64,000 nt of DNA, taken from Candidatus Latescibacterota bacterium (GTDB taxonomy: Bacteria; Latescibacterota; UBA2968; UBA8231). Under the pieces are notes generated by a model. It made no database searches. It saw only the letters and a list, made by a program, of their open reading frames with translations, and had not been told where the DNA came from. The translations under genes and the position numbers were made by a program. Shown here one piece after another: positions 42,923 to 48,902 of the stretch. The DNA is taken from assembly GCA_965208105.1 (NCBI GenBank), contig OZ242318.1:832001-896000 (forward strand). Reading direction: 5' to 3'. How positions within the stretch are numbered: the stretch's first letter is position 1; every line of letters starts with the position of its first letter.

Positions 42923-43654
42923 ATGGATCGATTCGCAGGCAGCACGGTCGTCGTGACCGGGGCCGGTACCGGCATGGGCCGCGCAATTGCCAGGGCTTTC
43001 GTGAAAGAGGGGGCCTGCGCCGCCTTCATCGGCCGCCGCCTGGAGAAACTCCAGGAGGCGACCGCCGCTCTGCCCGAGGAGCGGTTCATGCGCGCCGGCT
43101 GCGACGTCTCCGACCGCGCCGCGGTGAACTCCACGGCAAGGCAGGTGGAGGAGCGCTTCGGCAGGGTCCACATCCTGGTGAACAACGCCGGGGTCAACAC
43201 CAATCCCCGCTCCGTTGCCGAGGTCGATCCGGAGGACTGGGACAGCACCGTGGCGATCAACCTGACCGGTGCCTTCAATATGACCCGCGCCCTCCTGCCC
43301 GGAATGCGGGAGGAGAAGGACGGCGTGATCGTCAACCTTTCCTCGACGGCCGGCCTGCGCGCCTCAGAGCTGGCCGGCGCCGCCTATTCGGCGGCCAAGC
43401 ACGGGATGGTGGCGCTGACCCACAGTATCAACGAGGAGGAGAGGGACTACGGCATCCGCTCCTGTGCAATCTGCCCCGGCGAGGTGGCCACCCCCATCCT
43501 CGAGCTGCGCCCGGAGCCGGTGGAGCCCGAGCGCCTGGAGCGCATGCTGCAGCCGGATGACATCGCCGCTACCGTGCTTTTCGTCGCCGGCCTGCCGCCG
43601 CGGGCCTGCGTGCCCGAGTTGGTGATCAAGCCGGTGTACCAGATCTTCCAGTAG
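42923..43654 (+). CDS. SDR family oxidoreductase
   Basis: TGAGTGMG, NNAG, YSAAK. Confidence 0.9.
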   Translation: MDRFAGSTVVVTGAGTGMGRAIARAFVKEGACAAFIGRRLEKLQEATAALPEERFMRAGCDVSDRAAVNSTARQVEERFGRVHILVNNAGVNTNPRSVAEVDPEDWDSTVAINLTGAFNMTRALLPGMREEKDGVIVNLSSTAGLRASELAGAAYSAAKHGMVALTHSINEEERDYGIRSCAICPGEVATPILELRPEPVEPERLERMLQPDDIAATVLFVAGLPPRACVPELVIKPVYQIFQ

Positions 43655-43722
43655 GGTGTTGTGGATTTAGCCCGTAGCACAAAGATGGGTTTATCTGGAG
43701 GTTTGGTACCGCGGTAAGTCCG

Positions 43723-43890
43723 CTGGTGTCCCGCCGCAGAAATATGCCGCCATTATTCCGCCGATCCATCCCGGCTCAGGGAGTTGCCTTCACTCGCCGT
43801 ACACCACTGGTACGACTCGCTCAGGCGCCTTGTGAGCCGGGCGCCTCGGCAGCCCAATTGCGTCAACCTATCTCTGCGGCGGGACACTAG
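43723..43890 (-). mobile_element. 168-bp MITE-like palindromic element (CTGG...CTAG), copy 1
   Basis: 22-bp terminal inverted repeats with 2 mismatches (43723..43744 and 43869..43890); terminal CTAG contains the TAG stop of 43887..45014. Confidence 0.75.
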
Positions 43891-45014
43891 AAGGAGCATT
43901 GCAGCTGTATGGAGTAGGTATTGTCGGCGTAGCTCTGGGTGGGATCGCTCGAGTCGTTGGTCGCAAACGCGTATTCCAGCCGTGCCGCGAAATTGTCGCG
44001 GAGGTCCTGCTTAATGCCGAAGCTCAACAGGGTGTGGTTGTCGCGCCGTTTGGCGCCGGTCCCCGGCACGATCCAATCCTGGTACAGCTTGAAATGATGG
44101 CGCGCAGCAAGGCTCGCGCTGGAACGCGGCGCGAGTCGCCAGATGAAAAAAGACCCCAGGCGGTGGCTGGCGAAGTTGAAATCGACATCGTCCTCATCGC
44201 CGTCGTGATGGCCGAATTCACCCTTTTGCTCAGGCTCGCGAGAGAGGGGTTCGTGGCGCGGGAGTTCGCGGGAGGCCAGATCGATTTCGAACTGATATTT
44301 CAAATTCAGCAACACCCGCTCCAAGGCCATGCACTCAAACCCGAAGCTGGCTGTCTGGCGGATTCCGTCCACGTTCTCGTTGAGCTCGGATATGATGATT
44401 CTCGGGTCGATAACGCCCTGGTACGCCCGCACCTGATAGCCGGCGGAAACATGTGCAATCGAGCTTAGCCGCCGTCTGAGCCCCCCTTTGACCATGACAC
44501 TGCTATACGTGCTGCCTTCGTTGTTGGGAAAGTACTTGTTCCGCAGCTCGGCCCCGAACCGGGACGACCACGACGGATTCCACCGGACCTGGAGTTGACC
44601 ACTGATATCTTGCTTGAAGTATTCGTTGATGAGGTCGTTGGGTTGGCGCCGCAGGCCGAGGTTGGCGACGGTCAGGAGCGTGGCATCGCGGGAAAGCCTG
44701 CGGTGCCAAAGACCTGACAGCAGGTGATCGTAGCGATTCTTCTCCGTTACGTCGGCAAAGCGACGCGGGGCCATCTCATAGCGCACGGCGATGCGCGTAC
44801 GAGGATCGAGCGCGGCCCTGACATTGACCCCTGTCCATATATACGCGGCAAAATCCCGTTGTTCGCCCAAATCCTTCGGCACCTGCAAGACATTGTCTTC
44901 GTACTGGTAGCGGAGGTCAAGAAATGGCTCGATCCGCAACGATGAATCGGCGAAAACCAGGCACGGAGGGCTCAGCCCGAGCAACCATGCTACAACTGCA
45001 ATTCTCAATGACAC
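43887..45014 (-). CDS. outer-membrane beta-barrel protein with His/Asp-rich loop
   Basis: Signal peptide, RYQYEDNV, alternating beta strands, GHHDGDEDD loop, terminal YSIQLQCSF. Confidence 0.75.
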   Translation of the reverse strand: MSLRIAVVAWLLGLSPPCLVFADSSLRIEPFLDLRYQYEDNVLQVPKDLGEQRDFAAYIWTGVNVRAALDPRTRIAVRYEMAPRRFADVTEKNRYDHLLSGLWHRRLSRDATLLTVANLGLRRQPNDLINEYFKQDISGQLQVRWNPSWSSRFGAELRNKYFPNNEGSTYSSVMVKGGLRRRLSSIAHVSAGYQVRAYQGVIDPRIIISELNENVDGIRQTASFGFECMALERVLLNLKYQFEIDLASRELPRHEPLSREPEQKGEFGHHDGDEDDVDFNFASHRLGSFFIWRLAPRSSASLAARHHFKLYQDWIVPGTGAKRRDNHTLLSFGIKQDLRDNFAARLEYAFATNDSSDPTQSYADNTYSIQLQCSF

Positions 45015-45026
45015 GTGGGGATACCG

Positions 45027-45920
45027 TTACTTTCCCTGGAGCATATTCTCGAGTTCTTGGGCAAGATGTACCGCTTTCTCTCCGTGGACTTTTTCTTTGG
45101 CATACCAGTCCTCCCGTTTGATGCGCCAAATTTCCAGAGCCGATTCCGCATCCGCAATCTCGCCTTCCAACTCGGCGATATCGAGGTTGCGATCAAGGTC
45201 AAACTCGTCTTCTTCCCCGCGGCGCATGTCGCGGAGCAACTCCAGCATGTTGCGCCGCAGATCGAGTGCTTTACCGGTTTCGCGGATCTGCCGGTCAAGC
45301 TCTCCGATTTTGCTCCTTATAATATCCTGTTGGTCCTGGAGCACGGCCAATTTCTGCTGGATCTCATCGGGGCCATCTGTTTGCGCCAGGGCGACATCCA
45401 ACGCCATCAGCAACTCGCTGGACCCTCTGGCCATTTGCTCCCGGTAGTTTTCTGCTTCCTCCTGAAATTTCAGCATTGCGGCAAGAATTCGGGTCTTGGC
45501 GTTGGCGTCTTCGGCGACGCGGGCTTCCCCTGAAAGCCGCTCGATTTCGGCGTTCAGCATGCCCACGAGCATCCGTTGCCTGGAGACCGATTCCTCCGTG
45601 AGCGCATAGATCCGGTCGTCGAGCTCCTGGATCCGGTCCGACAACTCCCGGGACGCCTGCAGGTCGTTCTGTAGCTGTCGCTCAAGCAGCCGGTCGCCGC
45701 CCTGTTGCAGGTCCTGTTTGGCCGTGCGGATCCTGTCGGTCAACCTCTTGTTTTCGCGCAGCAGCCTGGCGCTCTCCGCCGAGATGGCTGCGGCCCGTTC
45801 GCCGAGTCGTTCAATCTGTATCCTCAAGTTTTGCAGGGTTGGCTCTTTTGTGAACGCCGCCGGCACCGCCCCGGTTGAGATGGAGAAAAGCAGCAGGAGA
45901 CACGGCCAGCTGAAAAGCAT
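45027..45920 (-). CDS. exported coiled-coil protein
   Basis: Hydrophobic N-terminus (MLFSWPCLLLLFSISTG) followed by long heptad-rich E/L/Q/R helices. Confidence 0.65.
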   Translation of the reverse strand: MLFSWPCLLLLFSISTGAVPAAFTKEPTLQNLRIQIERLGERAAAISAESARLLRENKRLTDRIRTAKQDLQQGGDRLLERQLQNDLQASRELSDRIQELDDRIYALTEESVSRQRMLVGMLNAEIERLSGEARVAEDANAKTRILAAMLKFQEEAENYREQMARGSSELLMALDVALAQTDGPDEIQQKLAVLQDQQDIIRSKIGELDRQIRETGKALDLRRNMLELLRDMRRGEEDEFDLDRNLDIAELEGEIADAESALEIWRIKREDWYAKEKVHGEKAVHLAQELENMLQGK

Positions 45921-45943
45921 GGTTCTGAACGACCGCCGAGAGA

Positions 45944-46111
45944 CTAGTGTCCCTTTGATAAAGTTGCTCTGCAGGCGAGGCCGAGTCACGGCGGTCGAAG
46001 GCAAGGCGTGCGACCGAGGCGAATCGAGGGAATCCGGAGAGGGGGCGCAACGCCGTATTCGAACGCCAGGGCCGGCGGCAGCCCGGATGGACTGTTTCAA
46101 CGGGCTGCTAG
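45944..46111 (+). mobile_element. 168-bp MITE-like palindromic element (CTAG...CTAG), copy 2
   Basis: CTAG at both ends, imperfect terminal inverted repeats, same length and loop motifs as copy 1; terminal CTAG contains the TAG stop of 46108..47445. Confidence 0.7.
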
Positions 46112-47445
46112 AGGTCATACTTCTCAAATTTGTAGCGGAAAGTGGTTCGTTCGATACCGAGCAATTTCGCGGCATCGGCTTTGACCTTGTTCGCCTTCAG
46201 ATAGGCATCCCACAAAAGCTGCTTTTCAAAAGCCTCGACGCGCTCCGTCAATGTGCCGCTTTCGACGTCGTGTTCAGGCGATTGAGCGTTCAGCGAGAGG
46301 TCCTCAGGCGTAATCTGGTTGCCCTGCGCCAACACCACGGCGCGTTCGACGACGTTCTCGAGTTCCCTGACATTGCCGGCCCAGGAGTAGGTCGTCAGCA
46401 ATTCCATTGCGCTTGGATGCACTGACGACACCTTCTTGCCGATCTCGGCGTTGTACTTGAGCAGGAAATGGGCCACCAGCAGCGGAATGTCTTCGCGGCG
46501 TTCGCGCAAGGGCGGGATCTCGATGGGAACCACGTTGAGGCGGTAGTACAGATCTTCGCGGAATGCCCCTTCCTTGATGCGGTCGGGCAGGTTTCGATTG
46601 GTCGCGGCGACGAGCCGGACATCGACCGCGATGGAGCGGGTTCCCCCAACCCGCTCGAACTCCCGTTCCTGCAGGACCCGCAGCAGTTTGACCTGCATGG
46701 CCGGCGTACTCTCGCCGATCTCGTCGAGGAACAACGTACCGCCATCGGCGATCTCGAAACGTCCGGGTTTCATCTTCACGGCCTGGGTAAATGCGCCTTT
46801 CTCATGGCCGAAGAGTTCGCTTTCCAGCACGCCTTCTGCCAGCGCCGCGCAATTGACTTTGACGAATGGTTTCTCCCAGCGCGTACTGTGCTGGTGGATC
46901 GCGCGGGCAACGAGCTCTTTCCCGGTGCCGCTTTCCCCGCCGATGAGCACGGTCGAATGGATTGGCGCGACGGTTTGTATCCTGCGAAAGACCGCTTGCA
47001 TCTGAGGGCTTTTTCCCATGATCTCGTCAAAGCTGTAGCGCAGCTCGTCTTCCCGGCGCAGGTAGGCGTTTTCCTGACCGAGACGGCGTCCGGCAAGCGC
47101 CTGTTCAATTTTTACTTCGATCTGTTCGAGGGTGTACGGTTTGGTTAAAAAGTCCACCGCTCCTTTCTGCATGGCCTCGACGGCCAGCTCGATCGTGCCG
47201 AAAGCCGTCATCATTACGACACTCGTTTCGGGCGCGATCTCGGCAATGGCTTCGAGGACTTCAATCCCGGTCTTCTTTGGCATCTGGATATCGACCATGG
47301 CCAAATCGAAAGAGTACTTCTCGACCGCTGCGATCGCGTCCTCTCCGTCAAATGCAACATGGGTCGAATGCCCCAGCCCCTCAAGCGCGAGGGCGAGCCC
47401 TTCCCTGGTGCTCTTATGGTCGTCGGCAATCAGTATCCGGCTCAT
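46108..47445 (-). CDS. sigma54-dependent NtrC/ZraR-family response regulator (REC-AAA-HTH)
   Basis: ILIADD, DIQMP, GESGTGKE, ESELFGHEKGAFTQA, LFLDEIG, FREDLYYRL, C-terminal HTH; ATGA overlap with the kinase. Confidence 0.95.
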   Translation of the reverse strand: MSRILIADDHKSTREGLALALEGLGHSTHVAFDGEDAIAAVEKYSFDLAMVDIQMPKKTGIEVLEAIAEIAPETSVVMMTAFGTIELAVEAMQKGAVDFLTKPYTLEQIEVKIEQALAGRRLGQENAYLRREDELRYSFDEIMGKSPQMQAVFRRIQTVAPIHSTVLIGGESGTGKELVARAIHQHSTRWEKPFVKVNCAALAEGVLESELFGHEKGAFTQAVKMKPGRFEIADGGTLFLDEIGESTPAMQVKLLRVLQEREFERVGGTRSIAVDVRLVAATNRNLPDRIKEGAFREDLYYRLNVVPIEIPPLRERREDIPLLVAHFLLKYNAEIGKKVSSVHPSAMELLTTYSWAGNVRELENVVERAVVLAQGNQITPEDLSLNAQSPEHDVESGTLTERVEAFEKQLLWDAYLKANKVKADAAKLLGIERTTFRYKFEKYDL

Positions 47446-48902
47446 GCCAGTCTTTCCCGCTTCAGAGTCGCCGGCAGTCTGAGGGCAAACGTCGTTCCGC
47501 CGCCTTGCTTGCTCGTGCATTCGATCGTGCCTTGGTGATGCTCGACCAGCCGTTTGACGATGGCCAACCCGAGACCCGTGCCCTTGTCTTTAGTGGTAAA
47601 AAACGGGCTAAAGGCGCGTTCCGCCGTCTCGGGGGACATACCCACTCCGGTATCCCGAACCTCGACGCGGATGGCGTCGGCGTCCGCATCGACAAAACCT
47701 TCAATGGCGATGGTTCCGCCCCGGTCGATTGCTTGCGCGGCATTCTTGACCAGATTGGTGAACACCCACTTGAGTTGGTCGGCGTCTGCTTCGATGGCGG
47801 GCAAGGTGTCCAGGTTTACCGTTTGAACCTCGACAGCGCCCTCGCGCAACTCCGCATCGAGCAGCGCCAGCACTGATGCGACTACGTTTGCCAAATCCAC
47901 CGCCCCGGTCTGCAGCGGCGTCGGACGCGCGAAGTCGAGAAATTCGCTGACCAGCTGGTTCAATGACCGCACTTCGCCATCCACTTGTTCAATCAGTTGC
48001 TCCGCCTTCGGGTCGGCGGGGATTTGGCGTTTGAGCAGGCCCAGGAAAATCCGCATCCCGTTAAGCGGGTTTCTGACCTCATGGGCAAGCCCGGCCGATA
48101 GCTGTCGAAGCTCCTCGGCCATGCGCGACACCTGCTGGTCCCGCTCTTGAATCGCGACACTCATCTCGTTGAATGTCGTGGCCAGCGCGCCGACCTCGTC
48201 TTCACTGCGCGTTTCAACCTGCGTCCCGAACGCCCCTGCCTTAATTCGTCGGGTCGCTTGCGAGAGTTTCTCAATCGGCACGACGATCGACCGGGCTAAA
48301 AAGATGCTGAGAGCAACGGCAAAAACCATACCAATAACGCCGATGAGTATCATGTCGCGGCTCATCTTGGCGAGGCTTTCGAGGAACAGCACACTCGCAT
48401 CCACAGCGAGAACGGCGACGATACCACCGTGTTCGTTGCGAATGGGCGCATAAGCCGATCGGTAGAAAGCATCGTCTATGCCCTGGAAGGCGACGGAAGC
48501 GGCCCCTATCCCTCGTTTGGCCTGGTCAATATGGATTCTGTCCTCGCCCAGTGAGTGGTATTGACTGCCGATGGGTACATCGAGGCGGGAATCGACGAGG
48601 CTTTTGTATTCAAGGTCAAGCACGTACATCGCCCGCGCTTCGGAAGCGTCGCGCATGGACTGCAGCTTCTTTTGCAGCGTTCGGTACAACCGCGTGTCTT
48701 CGCCGCCCGGCTGGAGTGCGCGCAAGTAGCTTCCATTGAGTTGTGCTGCAGAGGTCTTGGCGACCGCCACTAGCCGTTCGCCCATCTCGGCGTCGAGCGC
48801 ACGCTTTGCCGTGTCGAAAAACAGATAACTACTAGCCGTCAAAACCAGGACGACGAGCAGCGCAATAGTGAGGGTCGTCTTCGTTTGGAGGCGGAATTTC
48901 AT
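47442..48902 (-). CDS. membrane sensor histidine kinase (periplasmic domain, HAMP, HisKA, HATPase)
   Basis: Two TM segments, DEVGALA HAMP, LAHEVRNPL, NLVKNA, DTGVG, FFTTK.KGTGLGL. Confidence 0.95.
   Translation of the reverse strand: MKFRLQTKTTLTIALLVVLVLTASSYLFFDTAKRALDAEMGERLVAVAKTSAAQLNGSYLRALQPGGEDTRLYRTLQKKLQSMRDASEARAMYVLDLEYKSLVDSRLDVPIGSQYHSLGEDRIHIDQAKRGIGAASVAFQGIDDAFYRSAYAPIRNEHGGIVAVLAVDASVLFLESLAKMSRDMILIGVIGMVFAVALSIFLARSIVVPIEKLSQATRRIKAGAFGTQVETRSEDEVGALATTFNEMSVAIQERDQQVSRMAEELRQLSAGLAHEVRNPLNGMRIFLGLLKRQIPADPKAEQLIEQVDGEVRSLNQLVSEFLDFARPTPLQTGAVDLANVVASVLALLDAELREGAVEVQTVNLDTLPAIEADADQLKWVFTNLVKNAAQAIDRGGTIAIEGFVDADADAIRVEVRDTGVGMSPETAERAFSPFFTTKDKGTGLGLAIVKRLVEHHQGTIECTSKQGGGTTFALRLPATLKRERLA

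Follow-up and report, generated by a model that had tools for sequence, protein, structure and literature searches.

MITEs are usually viewed as the leftovers of internal deletions, in which only the ends are conserved. In plants, Stowaway MITEs are moved by Tc1/mariner transposases, generate a TA duplication and can adopt a hairpin fold over their entire length; to our knowledge, no conserved non-Watson-Crick core is common to Stowaway families with unrelated arms. REP and REPIN sequences are numerous palindromes in which compensating changes preserve the hairpin; they are not known to duplicate TA, and they need a Y1 transposase.

Individual REPs are 20–40 bp long and carry a GTAG or CGTC tag (PMC3733652). 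The RUP element of pneumococcus, attributed to IS630-Spn1, has 107 bp and, as far as it is summarised in PMC2229807, no other motif of structure or function is reported in it. The same summary describes the Correia/NEMIS and ERIC elements as intergenic, with TA ends and 5'-3' stem structures in RNA, and gives an IHF site as the central functional module of the Correia elements. ISfinder lists ERIC under MITEEc1 of the IS630 family, named MITEEc1_IS630 in a census preprint according to which 97.4% of prokaryotic MITE clusters are confined to one genus (bioRxiv 10.1101/2024.01.18.576219).

The two elements described here lie in a window of 64,000 nucleotides (contig OZ242318.1, positions 832,001 to 896,000) from the genome of a Candidatus Latescibacterota bacterium. 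Both are probably non-coding, TA-duplicating MITEs of the IS630 type, members of separate multi-copy families (A and B) within one pan-phylum superfamily that bears a common core. They resemble RUP in being small, non-coding and multi-copy, in their IS630-like terminal inverted repeats and in insertion at TA (PMC2229807), but are longer (162 bp), G+C-rich, paired over their full length and provided with a core common to several phyla. Stowaway elements are eukaryotic, whereas the present ones are bacterial. In comparison with Correia elements, as these are described, the core is G+C-rich, contains tandem G.A pairs and has no IHF site. When a Pseudomonas copy was searched by blastn (E up to 10) against 5,426 E. 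coli genomes, no match was obtained, so no likeness to ERIC was seen, and a blastn search of plasmids with a Pseudomonas copy gave none either. The layout of the two window copies is given in Table 1.

Table 1. Features of the two window copies and their surroundings (window coordinates)
Feature	Position	Strand	Remarks
Family A MITE copy	43726..43887	minus (core-sense strand)	162 bp, G to C
Terminal inverted repeats of A copy			both arms GTGTCCCGCCGCAGA
Flanks of A copy		plus	left CTG, a decayed CTA; right TAG
Conserved core of A copy	43780..43832	minus	element positions 59-111
Target-duplication TA, right end of A	43888..43889		with the element's last base C (43887) gives a TAG stop
ORF ending at A copy	43887..45014	minus	375 aa, without Pfam match; stop codon rebuilt by A end
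Family B MITE copy	45947..46108	plus (core-sense strand)	162 bp, G to C
Placement of B copy			in the gap from the sigma-54 response-regulator stop codon to the ATG (45918-45920) of the next minus-strand gene
Conserved core of B copy	46002..46054	plus	element positions 59-111
Duplicated TA, left of B insertion	45945..45946
Duplicated TA, right of B insertion	46109..46110		with C at 46108 gives the TAG stop of ORF 46108-47520
Sigma-54-dependent response-regulator gene	46108..47520	minus	Response_reg, Sigma54_activat, HTH_8; stop codon rebuilt by B end

The sequence-only reading of this DNA had started from two stretches of 168 nt, positions 43723-43890 read as the reverse complement and positions 45944-46111 read forward, and its description of them was borne out. 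Their gap-free alignment has 72 identical columns out of 168, and both contain CTAGTGTCCC (1-10), CAAGGCG (59-65), CGAG (72-75), CGGnGAG (92-98) and GCAAC (104-108). Different bases pair in the same register at 67/103 (C-G vs G-C), 68/102 (T-A vs C-G), 71/99 (G-T vs C-G) and 81/89 (C-G vs T-A), the outer stems occupy 50-58/113-121 in one copy and 47-56/115-124 in the other (i+j=171 for both), and the tandem G.A pair is formed by G73 A74 and G96 A97. The two copies face opposite ways, and the right-hand CTAG of each contains the stop codon of a minus-strand ORF, as had been claimed. The ORF that ends at the A copy has an ortholog in the related genome G021 whose reading frame is approximately 9 codons longer. 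The B copy is set in an operon-like series of minus-strand genes.

The core of the A copy is ordered CAAGGCG, stem, GA, CGAG, stem-loop, CGGCGAG, GA, stem, GCAAC, and forms two tandem G.A pairs on the minus strand. The covariance model R1 gave 77.7 bits on the A copy (G000 875761-875853) and 65.7 bits on the B core (G000 877981-878073). Folding returned a single long hairpin for each copy, at -101.2 kcal/mol (z = -9.3) for A and -71.2 kcal/mol (z = -1.5) for B. The normal 5' end of family B, present in its other 13 full copies, is CTAGCAGCCCG or a near variant and not CTAGTGTCCC; in the window B copy the first 8 element bases (11 including the flanking CTA) are A-like, so that this 5' end is chimeric or mutated.

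The two stretches had been taken for diverged copies of one family. This view had to be abandoned: A and B come from separate families, and within each family the copies are nearly identical. Family A comprises 92 copies of at least 145 bp in the genome, mostly 85-96% identical, with the terminal-repeat pairs spaced 161-163 bp apart in 82 copies. Family B has 14 full copies, and a third family, C, with a core common with A, has 19. The elements start with GTG or GCAG directly after the TA. The solo ends in the genome proved to be either truncated copies or chimeras of A with B or with C. Roughly 20 core-less mini elements, 31 bp in length, consist of B ends alone; either the core is dispensable for movement or the mini elements are deletion remnants.

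The flanks of the 125 copies are CTAG on both sides in 50 cases and contain TA on both sides in 68. Of the 18 copies with TA but not CTAG at both ends, 17 are bordered by unlike 4-mers (e.g. CTAG...CTAA), which fits a duplication of TA and does not fit one of 4 bp. Positions G4 and C165 are conserved like internal bases, and positions 1-3 and 166-168 are variable. The target duplication is TA, preferably within CTAG. At the site of the B copy the flanks meet at a single CTA in G021, and metagenome contigs of runs X1 and X7 join 45943 directly to 46108, skipping 164 bases that correspond to 162 plus TA. B is a real insertion, its site being unoccupied in a relative as well as in a related strain of greater abundance. 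The proposal that the elements are mobile and non-autonomous is upheld by their copy number, their terminal inverted repeats and these empty sites.

Of the 125 copies, 73 overlap the stop codon of a gene, in comparison to 230 of 1501 other CTAG sites. Since an element starts with G and ends with C, TAG is restored when it inserts at the TA of a stop codon; such an insertion is therefore harmless, as the sequence-only reading had supposed, and copies accumulate at gene ends. The association with stop codons is explained by TA targeting combined with selection against hits inside genes. Given this siting, most copies are probably transcribed. Relative to the transcription of the gene reading in, 69 are sense and 89 antisense, and the corresponding numbers for genes whose stop codon is common to a copy are 34 and 42. 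Singleton changes per site in family A amount to 0.66 in the terminal repeats, 0.63 in the arms and 0.74 in the core. As the core is no less densely changed than the arms, single copies look neutral where they are sited.

A scan with the core pattern yielded at least 114 loci in at least 23 sequence clusters from at least 6 phyla, and the complete genome G013 of the same phylum contains at least 28 core matches, the Pseudomonas genome G212 at least 35. Covariation is strong. An alignment of 43 non-redundant sequences taken from many genomes has 79.1% of its cells paired, in comparison to 26-42% with the partner column slid; both sides are changed in 191 cells, versus 40-64 in the slid controls and 77.6 +/- 6.7 in shuffled ones (0 of 500 shuffles reach 191). 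The fold is kept while the sequence diverges, in agreement with the sequence-only reading, and the occurrence of the same core and register in 43 sequences places the similarity of A and B far beyond chance. The core structure was set by hand; RNAalifold on alignment A3 placed part of the core out of register because G.A pairs are not credited. In the paired columns G.A or A.G occurs 103 times and C.T or T.C 22 times, and G-T or T-G 72 times versus 28 for A-C or C-A. In each of 18 representative elements the sense strand has the more stable fold, by a mean of 15.9 kcal/mol. Among the ten Pseudomonas matches that came from the model rather than from the pattern, seven have an A-T pair where three have G-C. 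The terminal repeats of family A, too, show an excess of pairing-preserving double changes (32 cells across 18 pairs; 2-7 in slid controls; shuffle mean 11.5, maximum 19). The fold matches no described RNA family: Rfam 15 gave nothing on A or B in window positions 43000-47000 at E up to 10 and 0 matches in five Pseudomonas loci at E up to 1.

These properties could also be expected of elements kept mainly as structured RNA in the service of the host, e.g. as a hairpin at the 3' end by which the operon mRNA is stabilised or processed, an effect on mRNA stability having been suggested in the sequence-only reading. The G.A and G-U pairs are found on one strand only, the better-folding one, as in functional RNAs, the majority of copies sit exactly at a stop codon, so most are probably transcribed, and B lies within an operon-like gene run. 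Such a role is nevertheless unlikely. Copies are found in both orientations, overall and at the stop codons they have in common with genes, the two window copies are themselves in opposite orientation, singleton mutations are no sparser in the core than in the arms, and the B site is empty in the relative and in the more abundant strain. A scan of both window copies revealed no promoter-like or terminator-like sites, and the siting at stop codons is accounted for by TA targeting and counter-selection within genes.

The explanation preferred here, insertion as IS630-type MITEs, rests in part on the ends of the elements. The end of family A and that of family C each agree in 21 of 30 bases with an IS630 element of 1177 bp from a sibling genus (G108, L152; transposase at 1096-2184), the background for unrelated ends being 8-16 of 30. 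In Pseudomonas the right end of an IS630 element (L172) agrees with the ends of core-bearing Pseudomonas MITEs in 24 and 22 of 30 bases, but with the families of the window genome in only 9-12 of 30. The likeness between MITE ends and IS ends thus amounts to 70-80% over 30 nt, short of identity. No end partner was found for family B. In the IS630 copy of G001 (L127) no clean terminal repeats were found.

The 13 DDE_3 matches in the window's genome include an IS630-family element of 1162 bp, present in 9 copies between CTA...TAG flanks, which has its own 100-bp MITE in 4 copies. An autonomous element with A, B or C ends was not found in this genome, and its best relative of the G108 transposase shows only 28-29% identity. 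The core was not found in the autonomous IS630 elements whose ends match. DDE_3 is present in only 1 of 5 carrier genomes of other phyla and in 2 of 5 high-copy Pseudomonas genomes, and is absent from the complete genome G013. Among 151 genomes of the phylum it occurs in 27 of 46 core carriers and 43 of 105 non-carriers (Fisher p = 0.052, a weak difference since the genomes are related).

The many carrier genomes without DDE_3 would be in keeping with movement as single-stranded DNA hairpins through a Y1/HUH transposase (as in REP/REPIN-RAYT or IS200/IS605) or another enzyme recognising the core, the likeness to IS630 ends being secondary. The conserved full-length pairing, the strand-specific structure and the excess of pairing-preserving double changes in the family A repeats point the same way, as does an orientation bias of 81 to 44 relative to replication in G000. 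This bias is unsettled; it was not clearly repeated in G001 (49 to 37, for 86 of at least 108 matches and with the origin assumed near coordinate 0). Movement of this kind is very doubtful, as Y1_Tnp (PF01797), a transposase of the type suggested by the sequence-only reading, had no match in the genome (completeness 93.9%), the arms have IS630-like ends in two phyla, and the TA duplication is clean, whereas Y1 elements are not known to make one. The elements differ from REP/REPIN-RAYT in the lack of a Y1 match, in the TA duplication, in their length of 162 bp and in their starts.

An origin as IS5-family MITEs duplicating the 4 bp CTAG, the link made in the sequence-only reading, is scarcely credible, for although many copies have CTAG at both ends, 4 DDE_Tnp_1 matches occur in the genome and MITEPsy1, an IS5-derived Pseudomonas MITE, duplicates CTAG or YTAA (PMC3189936), the flanking 4-mers are nearly always unlike in the informative copies, G4 and C165 behave as internal bases and the ends are like those of IS630.

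In the preferred explanation, the elements are bounded by their terminal inverted repeats and insert at TA, preferably in CTAG, with duplication of the TA. The arms, which differ between families, pair over their full length in every member, so that one strand folds into a single long hairpin. In two phyla the arm ends resemble local IS630-family ends, and the elements are presumably mobilised by cut and paste with an IS630 transposase acting in trans. A core of about 53 nt is common to all families and has two or three tandem G.A pairs, confined to one strand; this core may act in cis for the spread or survival of the element itself, in a single-stranded or cruciform state, rather than as a regulator of neighbouring genes.

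A further proposal is put forward only tentatively. The G.A core might be a new and widespread structured module and the cis element that defines an ancient pan-bacterial lineage of non-autonomous transposons, in which the core is retained and the arms are swapped or re-tuned to the local IS630. A protein might read it in folded form, be it single-stranded DNA, cruciform or RNA, which could be why core-bearing elements outnumber core-less MITEs.

No description of the element was found in the full-text literature searched; ISfinder, Dfam and subscription journals lay outside this search, and an earlier description may exist. In contrast to the usual view of MITEs, it is the ends that differ in these elements, and a folded core in the interior is preserved in at least 6 phyla and is absent from the autonomous elements with matching ends. 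If the core aids spread or persistence, it would represent a novel type of cis element in DNA transposition and would be part of the reason why some MITE families reach about a hundred copies. The covariance model flags hundreds of repeats in metagenome-assembled genomes, at which assemblies break, and the elements explain many apparent conserved RNA structures directly 3' of stop codons.

An IS110-family element was found inserted into the ends of family A. IS110-family elements also insert into REPs, a point of likeness to REP/REPIN sequences.

Families A, B and C of the window genome are non-coding, multi-copy insertions that are bounded by terminal repeats and duplicate TA; at least one of them is polymorphic, and stop codons are preserved. 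Copies A and B (each 168 nt with flanks, the element being 162 bp) can be aligned gap-free (72 of 168 columns identical) and have common motifs, same-register pairs changed on both sides and a tandem G.A at 73-74/96-97, much as the sequence-only reading had described. The TAG stop that it had placed in the terminal CTAG was also confirmed, as the right-hand CTAG of A and of B alike contains the stop of a minus-strand ORF. Copy A folds into a single long hairpin of -101.2 kcal/mol (z = -9.3), and copy B takes the same shape in a weaker form (-71.2 kcal/mol, z = -1.5).

The window's own genome consists of a single 4.85-Mb contig of 61.6 % G+C, in which a BLAST search revealed three families: 92 copies of family A, mostly at 85-96 % identity, 14 full copies of family B and 19 of family C, which has the length of A, different arms and a core common with A at approximately 87 % identity. 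The consensus folds of the three families are each about -100 to -109 kcal/mol. The two window copies, previously taken for diverged copies of one element, belong to separate families. Copy B is atypical within its own family in that its initial 11 bases are A-end-like; the other 13 full B copies begin with CTAGCAGCCCG or a near variant. A/B and A/C chimeras, comprising the left half of A and the right end of B or C joined within or beside the common core, are found elsewhere in the genome. Such chimeric copies, the window B copy included, suggest recombination between the families.

Coordinates of the elements and associated features
Feature	Sequence	Position	Strand
Copy A	window	43723-43890	minus
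Copy B	window	45944-46111	plus
A-end-like start of copy B	window	45944-45954	
Bases skipped at the empty B site	window	45943->46108	
ORF next to copy A	window	43887-45014	
ORF end compared with its ortholog	window	43887-43910	
Region of run X1 depth comparison	window	43300-46700	
A/B and A/C chimeras (examples)	window genome; locus L083	378581; 3931641	
1162-bp IS630-family element (example)	window genome, locus L008	878-2039	
31-bp mini elements (examples)	window genome, contig C1	4253148; 3096490	
IS110-family element abutting A (examples)	window genome, contig C1, outside window	2245519-2246280; 181886-182648; 1994948-1995590	
Opposite-strand core pairs (examples)	second core-rich genome (G001), contig C1	318131-318347; 2507738-2507954	
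IS630 transposase ORF	sibling-genus genome (G108), locus L152	1096-2184	

Conservation drops between the first G of the element and the flanking CTA. Among 125 copies the flanks were CTAG/CTAG in 50 and TA on both sides in 68, and in 17 of the 18 TA-flanked copies other than CTAG/CTAG the two 4-mers were unlike. What is duplicated is therefore TA, with CTAG as the preferred context, and not the 4 bp implied by the proposed link to CTAG-targeting IS5 transposases. Neighbouring copies often abut, with a TA common to both. The B site was empty in the related genome G021, where both flanks are joined at a single CTA, and in contigs of two metagenome runs (X1 and X7) from two studies, in which exactly 164 bases are skipped; copy B is therefore a true, fairly recent insertion. 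No empty site for copy A was found in relatives, where the gene order differs. Run X1 contains a related strain with many single-base differences and no B insertion, whose contigs were about 25 times deeper than those of the window's own strain (about 200-230 vs about 9).

The terminal TAG was the exact stop codon of a called gene in 73 of 125 copies, in comparison to 230 of 1501 other CTAG sites; gene calls for this count and for gene orientation came from our own simple ORF and GC3 heuristic. With G as first and C as last base of the element, TAG is rebuilt at each junction, and at the B site the stop codon of the relative is kept to the letter. The ortholog in G021 (locus L130) of the ORF next to copy A is longer by about 9 codons, and the protein next to copy A may owe a shortened C-terminus to the A insertion or to its target site. 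Taken relative to genes that read into a copy, the orientation was sense in 69 cases and antisense in 89. With respect to replication, the core-sense strand of the 125 A, B and C copies was on the lagging-strand sequence in 81 vs 44 cases (p = 0.0012); this bias sits in copies between same-direction genes (48 vs 18), is absent between convergent genes (24 vs 22) and was not clearly repeated in G001.

A core pattern built from the motifs common to A and B was scanned against a genome collection and matched at least 114 loci, forming 23 clusters among the matches listed. By record titles these belong to Candidatus Latescibacterota, Gemmatimonadota, Myxococcota, Nitrospirae, Acidobacteriota and Gamma- and Betaproteobacteria including Pseudomonas; most core loci listed are elements of about 160 bp with TA flanks, ends beginning with GTG and unrelated arms. 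Covariation was assessed on 43 non-redundant core regions with the structure set by hand; the invariant motif columns were imposed by the search pattern and have no evidence value, whereas the covarying columns were not imposed. Covariation was strong: 79.1 % of cells were paired vs 26-42 % with the partner column slid, and 191 cells were changed on both sides vs 40-64 slid and 77.6 +/- 6.7 shuffled, none of 500 shuffles reaching the observed value. The covariation score was 0.378 vs 0.07-0.10. A second tandem G.A, not imposed by the pattern, was present in roughly 31 of 43 cores, and some families have three. Paired columns contained G.A/A.G in 103 cells vs 22 of C.T/T.C, and G-T/T-G in 72 vs 28 of A-C/C-A, while the sense strand gave the better fold in 18 of 18 representative full elements (mean 15.9 kcal/mol); the fold therefore has polarity.

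A covariance model built from the 43 cores gave 141 matches in the window's own genome and at least 108 and at least 77 in two others. Matches were present in 46 of 151 sampled genomes of the phylum, patchily by family, and in 46 of 121 Pseudomonas species genomes. In ten Pseudomonas matches obtained with the model, not the pattern, the pair beside the inner G.A motif was A-T in seven and G-C in three. No described RNA family in Rfam matched the window copies or five Pseudomonas loci.

The core would be kept by selection on propagating lineages, not on single resident copies. In family A singleton changes are flat along the element, and the lower number of shared variants per site in the core (variant copies: core 2.11, arms 3.87, terminal repeats 4.26; few sites) offers weak support for selection at the lineage level. 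Within family A, and above all in its terminal repeats, pairing-preserving double changes were more frequent than in the controls, at 32 cells in 18 pairs vs 2-7 cells slid and a shuffle mean of 11.5 (maximum 19). This excess points either to selected pairing or to repair acting on a folded intermediate. The folded form might be a cruciform joining the two ends of the short element, a single-stranded DNA hairpin or RNA.

As to the mobilizing enzyme, IS630-family transposases would move A/B/C-type elements in trans, and families may arise or be re-tuned through change or exchange of arms, chimeras being at hand. The window genome has 13 matches to the IS630-family domain DDE_3 and none to the Y1/HUH transposase domain Y1_Tnp (PF01797). 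Its resident 1162-bp IS630-family element (9 copies, CTA...TAG flanks) encodes its transposase in two frames, divided at a run of A, and four copies of a 100-bp MITE carry the same ends. The ends of A, B or C were on none of the genome's own IS630 elements. G108 has a 1177-bp IS630-family element encoding a 362-aa transposase with HTH and DDE_3 domains, whose right end matches the A end, and left end the C end, in 21 of 30 bases each. This resemblance is on a par with that between the two ends of A (23/30) or of C (21/30); unrelated ends give 8-16/30. Relatives of this transposase in the window genome are only 28-29 % identical, so A and C are orphans there, which fits their divergence of about 7 %. 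Of the core matches listed in G108, 14 share a score of exactly 92.0 bits, which suggests a young burst where the partner IS630 is present. The transposase ORF of this element extends across the right terminal repeat and ends in a stop codon made of the duplicated TA and the flanking G.

An independent case comes from a second phylum, in which a Pseudomonas IS630 element agrees at its right end with the ends of a core-bearing Pseudomonas MITE in 24/30 and 22/30 bases and with another family in 20/30, but with the window genome's families in only 9-12/30. What speaks against a simple IS630 picture is that only 1 of 5 core-carrier genomes from other phyla, and only 2 of 5 high-copy Pseudomonas genomes, gave a DDE_3 match. 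Among the 151 genomes of the phylum, which are related and in many cases fragmented, DDE_3 was present in 27 of 46 core carriers vs 43 of 105 non-carriers (p = 0.052). The core itself was absent from arm-matching autonomous IS630 elements.

Plant Stowaway elements are among the closest described kinds. So are RUP with IS630-Spn1, Correia and ERIC (PMC2229807). The present elements differ from all four in their G+C-rich, strand-specific, non-Watson-Crick core, which recurs in several phyla in families whose arms are unrelated. A census preprint reports that clusters of MITEs seldom extend beyond one genus (bioRxiv 10.1101/2024.01.18.576219).

Several smaller arrangements accompany the families. 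Mini elements of 31 bp with B ends only (TA|GCAGCCCGGATGGACTTTTTCAACGGGCTGC|TA) are present at about 20 sites and could be mobile minimal MITEs, or deletion remnants between GCAGCCCG direct repeats of full B copies. In G001, pairs of core matches on opposite strands about 125 bp apart occur in at least 9 places; they are recurrent composites, the A-like copy always occupying one position within a B-like arm. An IS110-family element of the window genome (Transposase_20 domain, ORF of about 412 aa, 13 matches) abuts the family A terminus in 10 copies with an invariant junction, ...CAATACATA|TCA|GTGTCCCG, and appears to insert site-specifically into the A end; members of IS110/IS1111 insert site-specifically into REP sequences.
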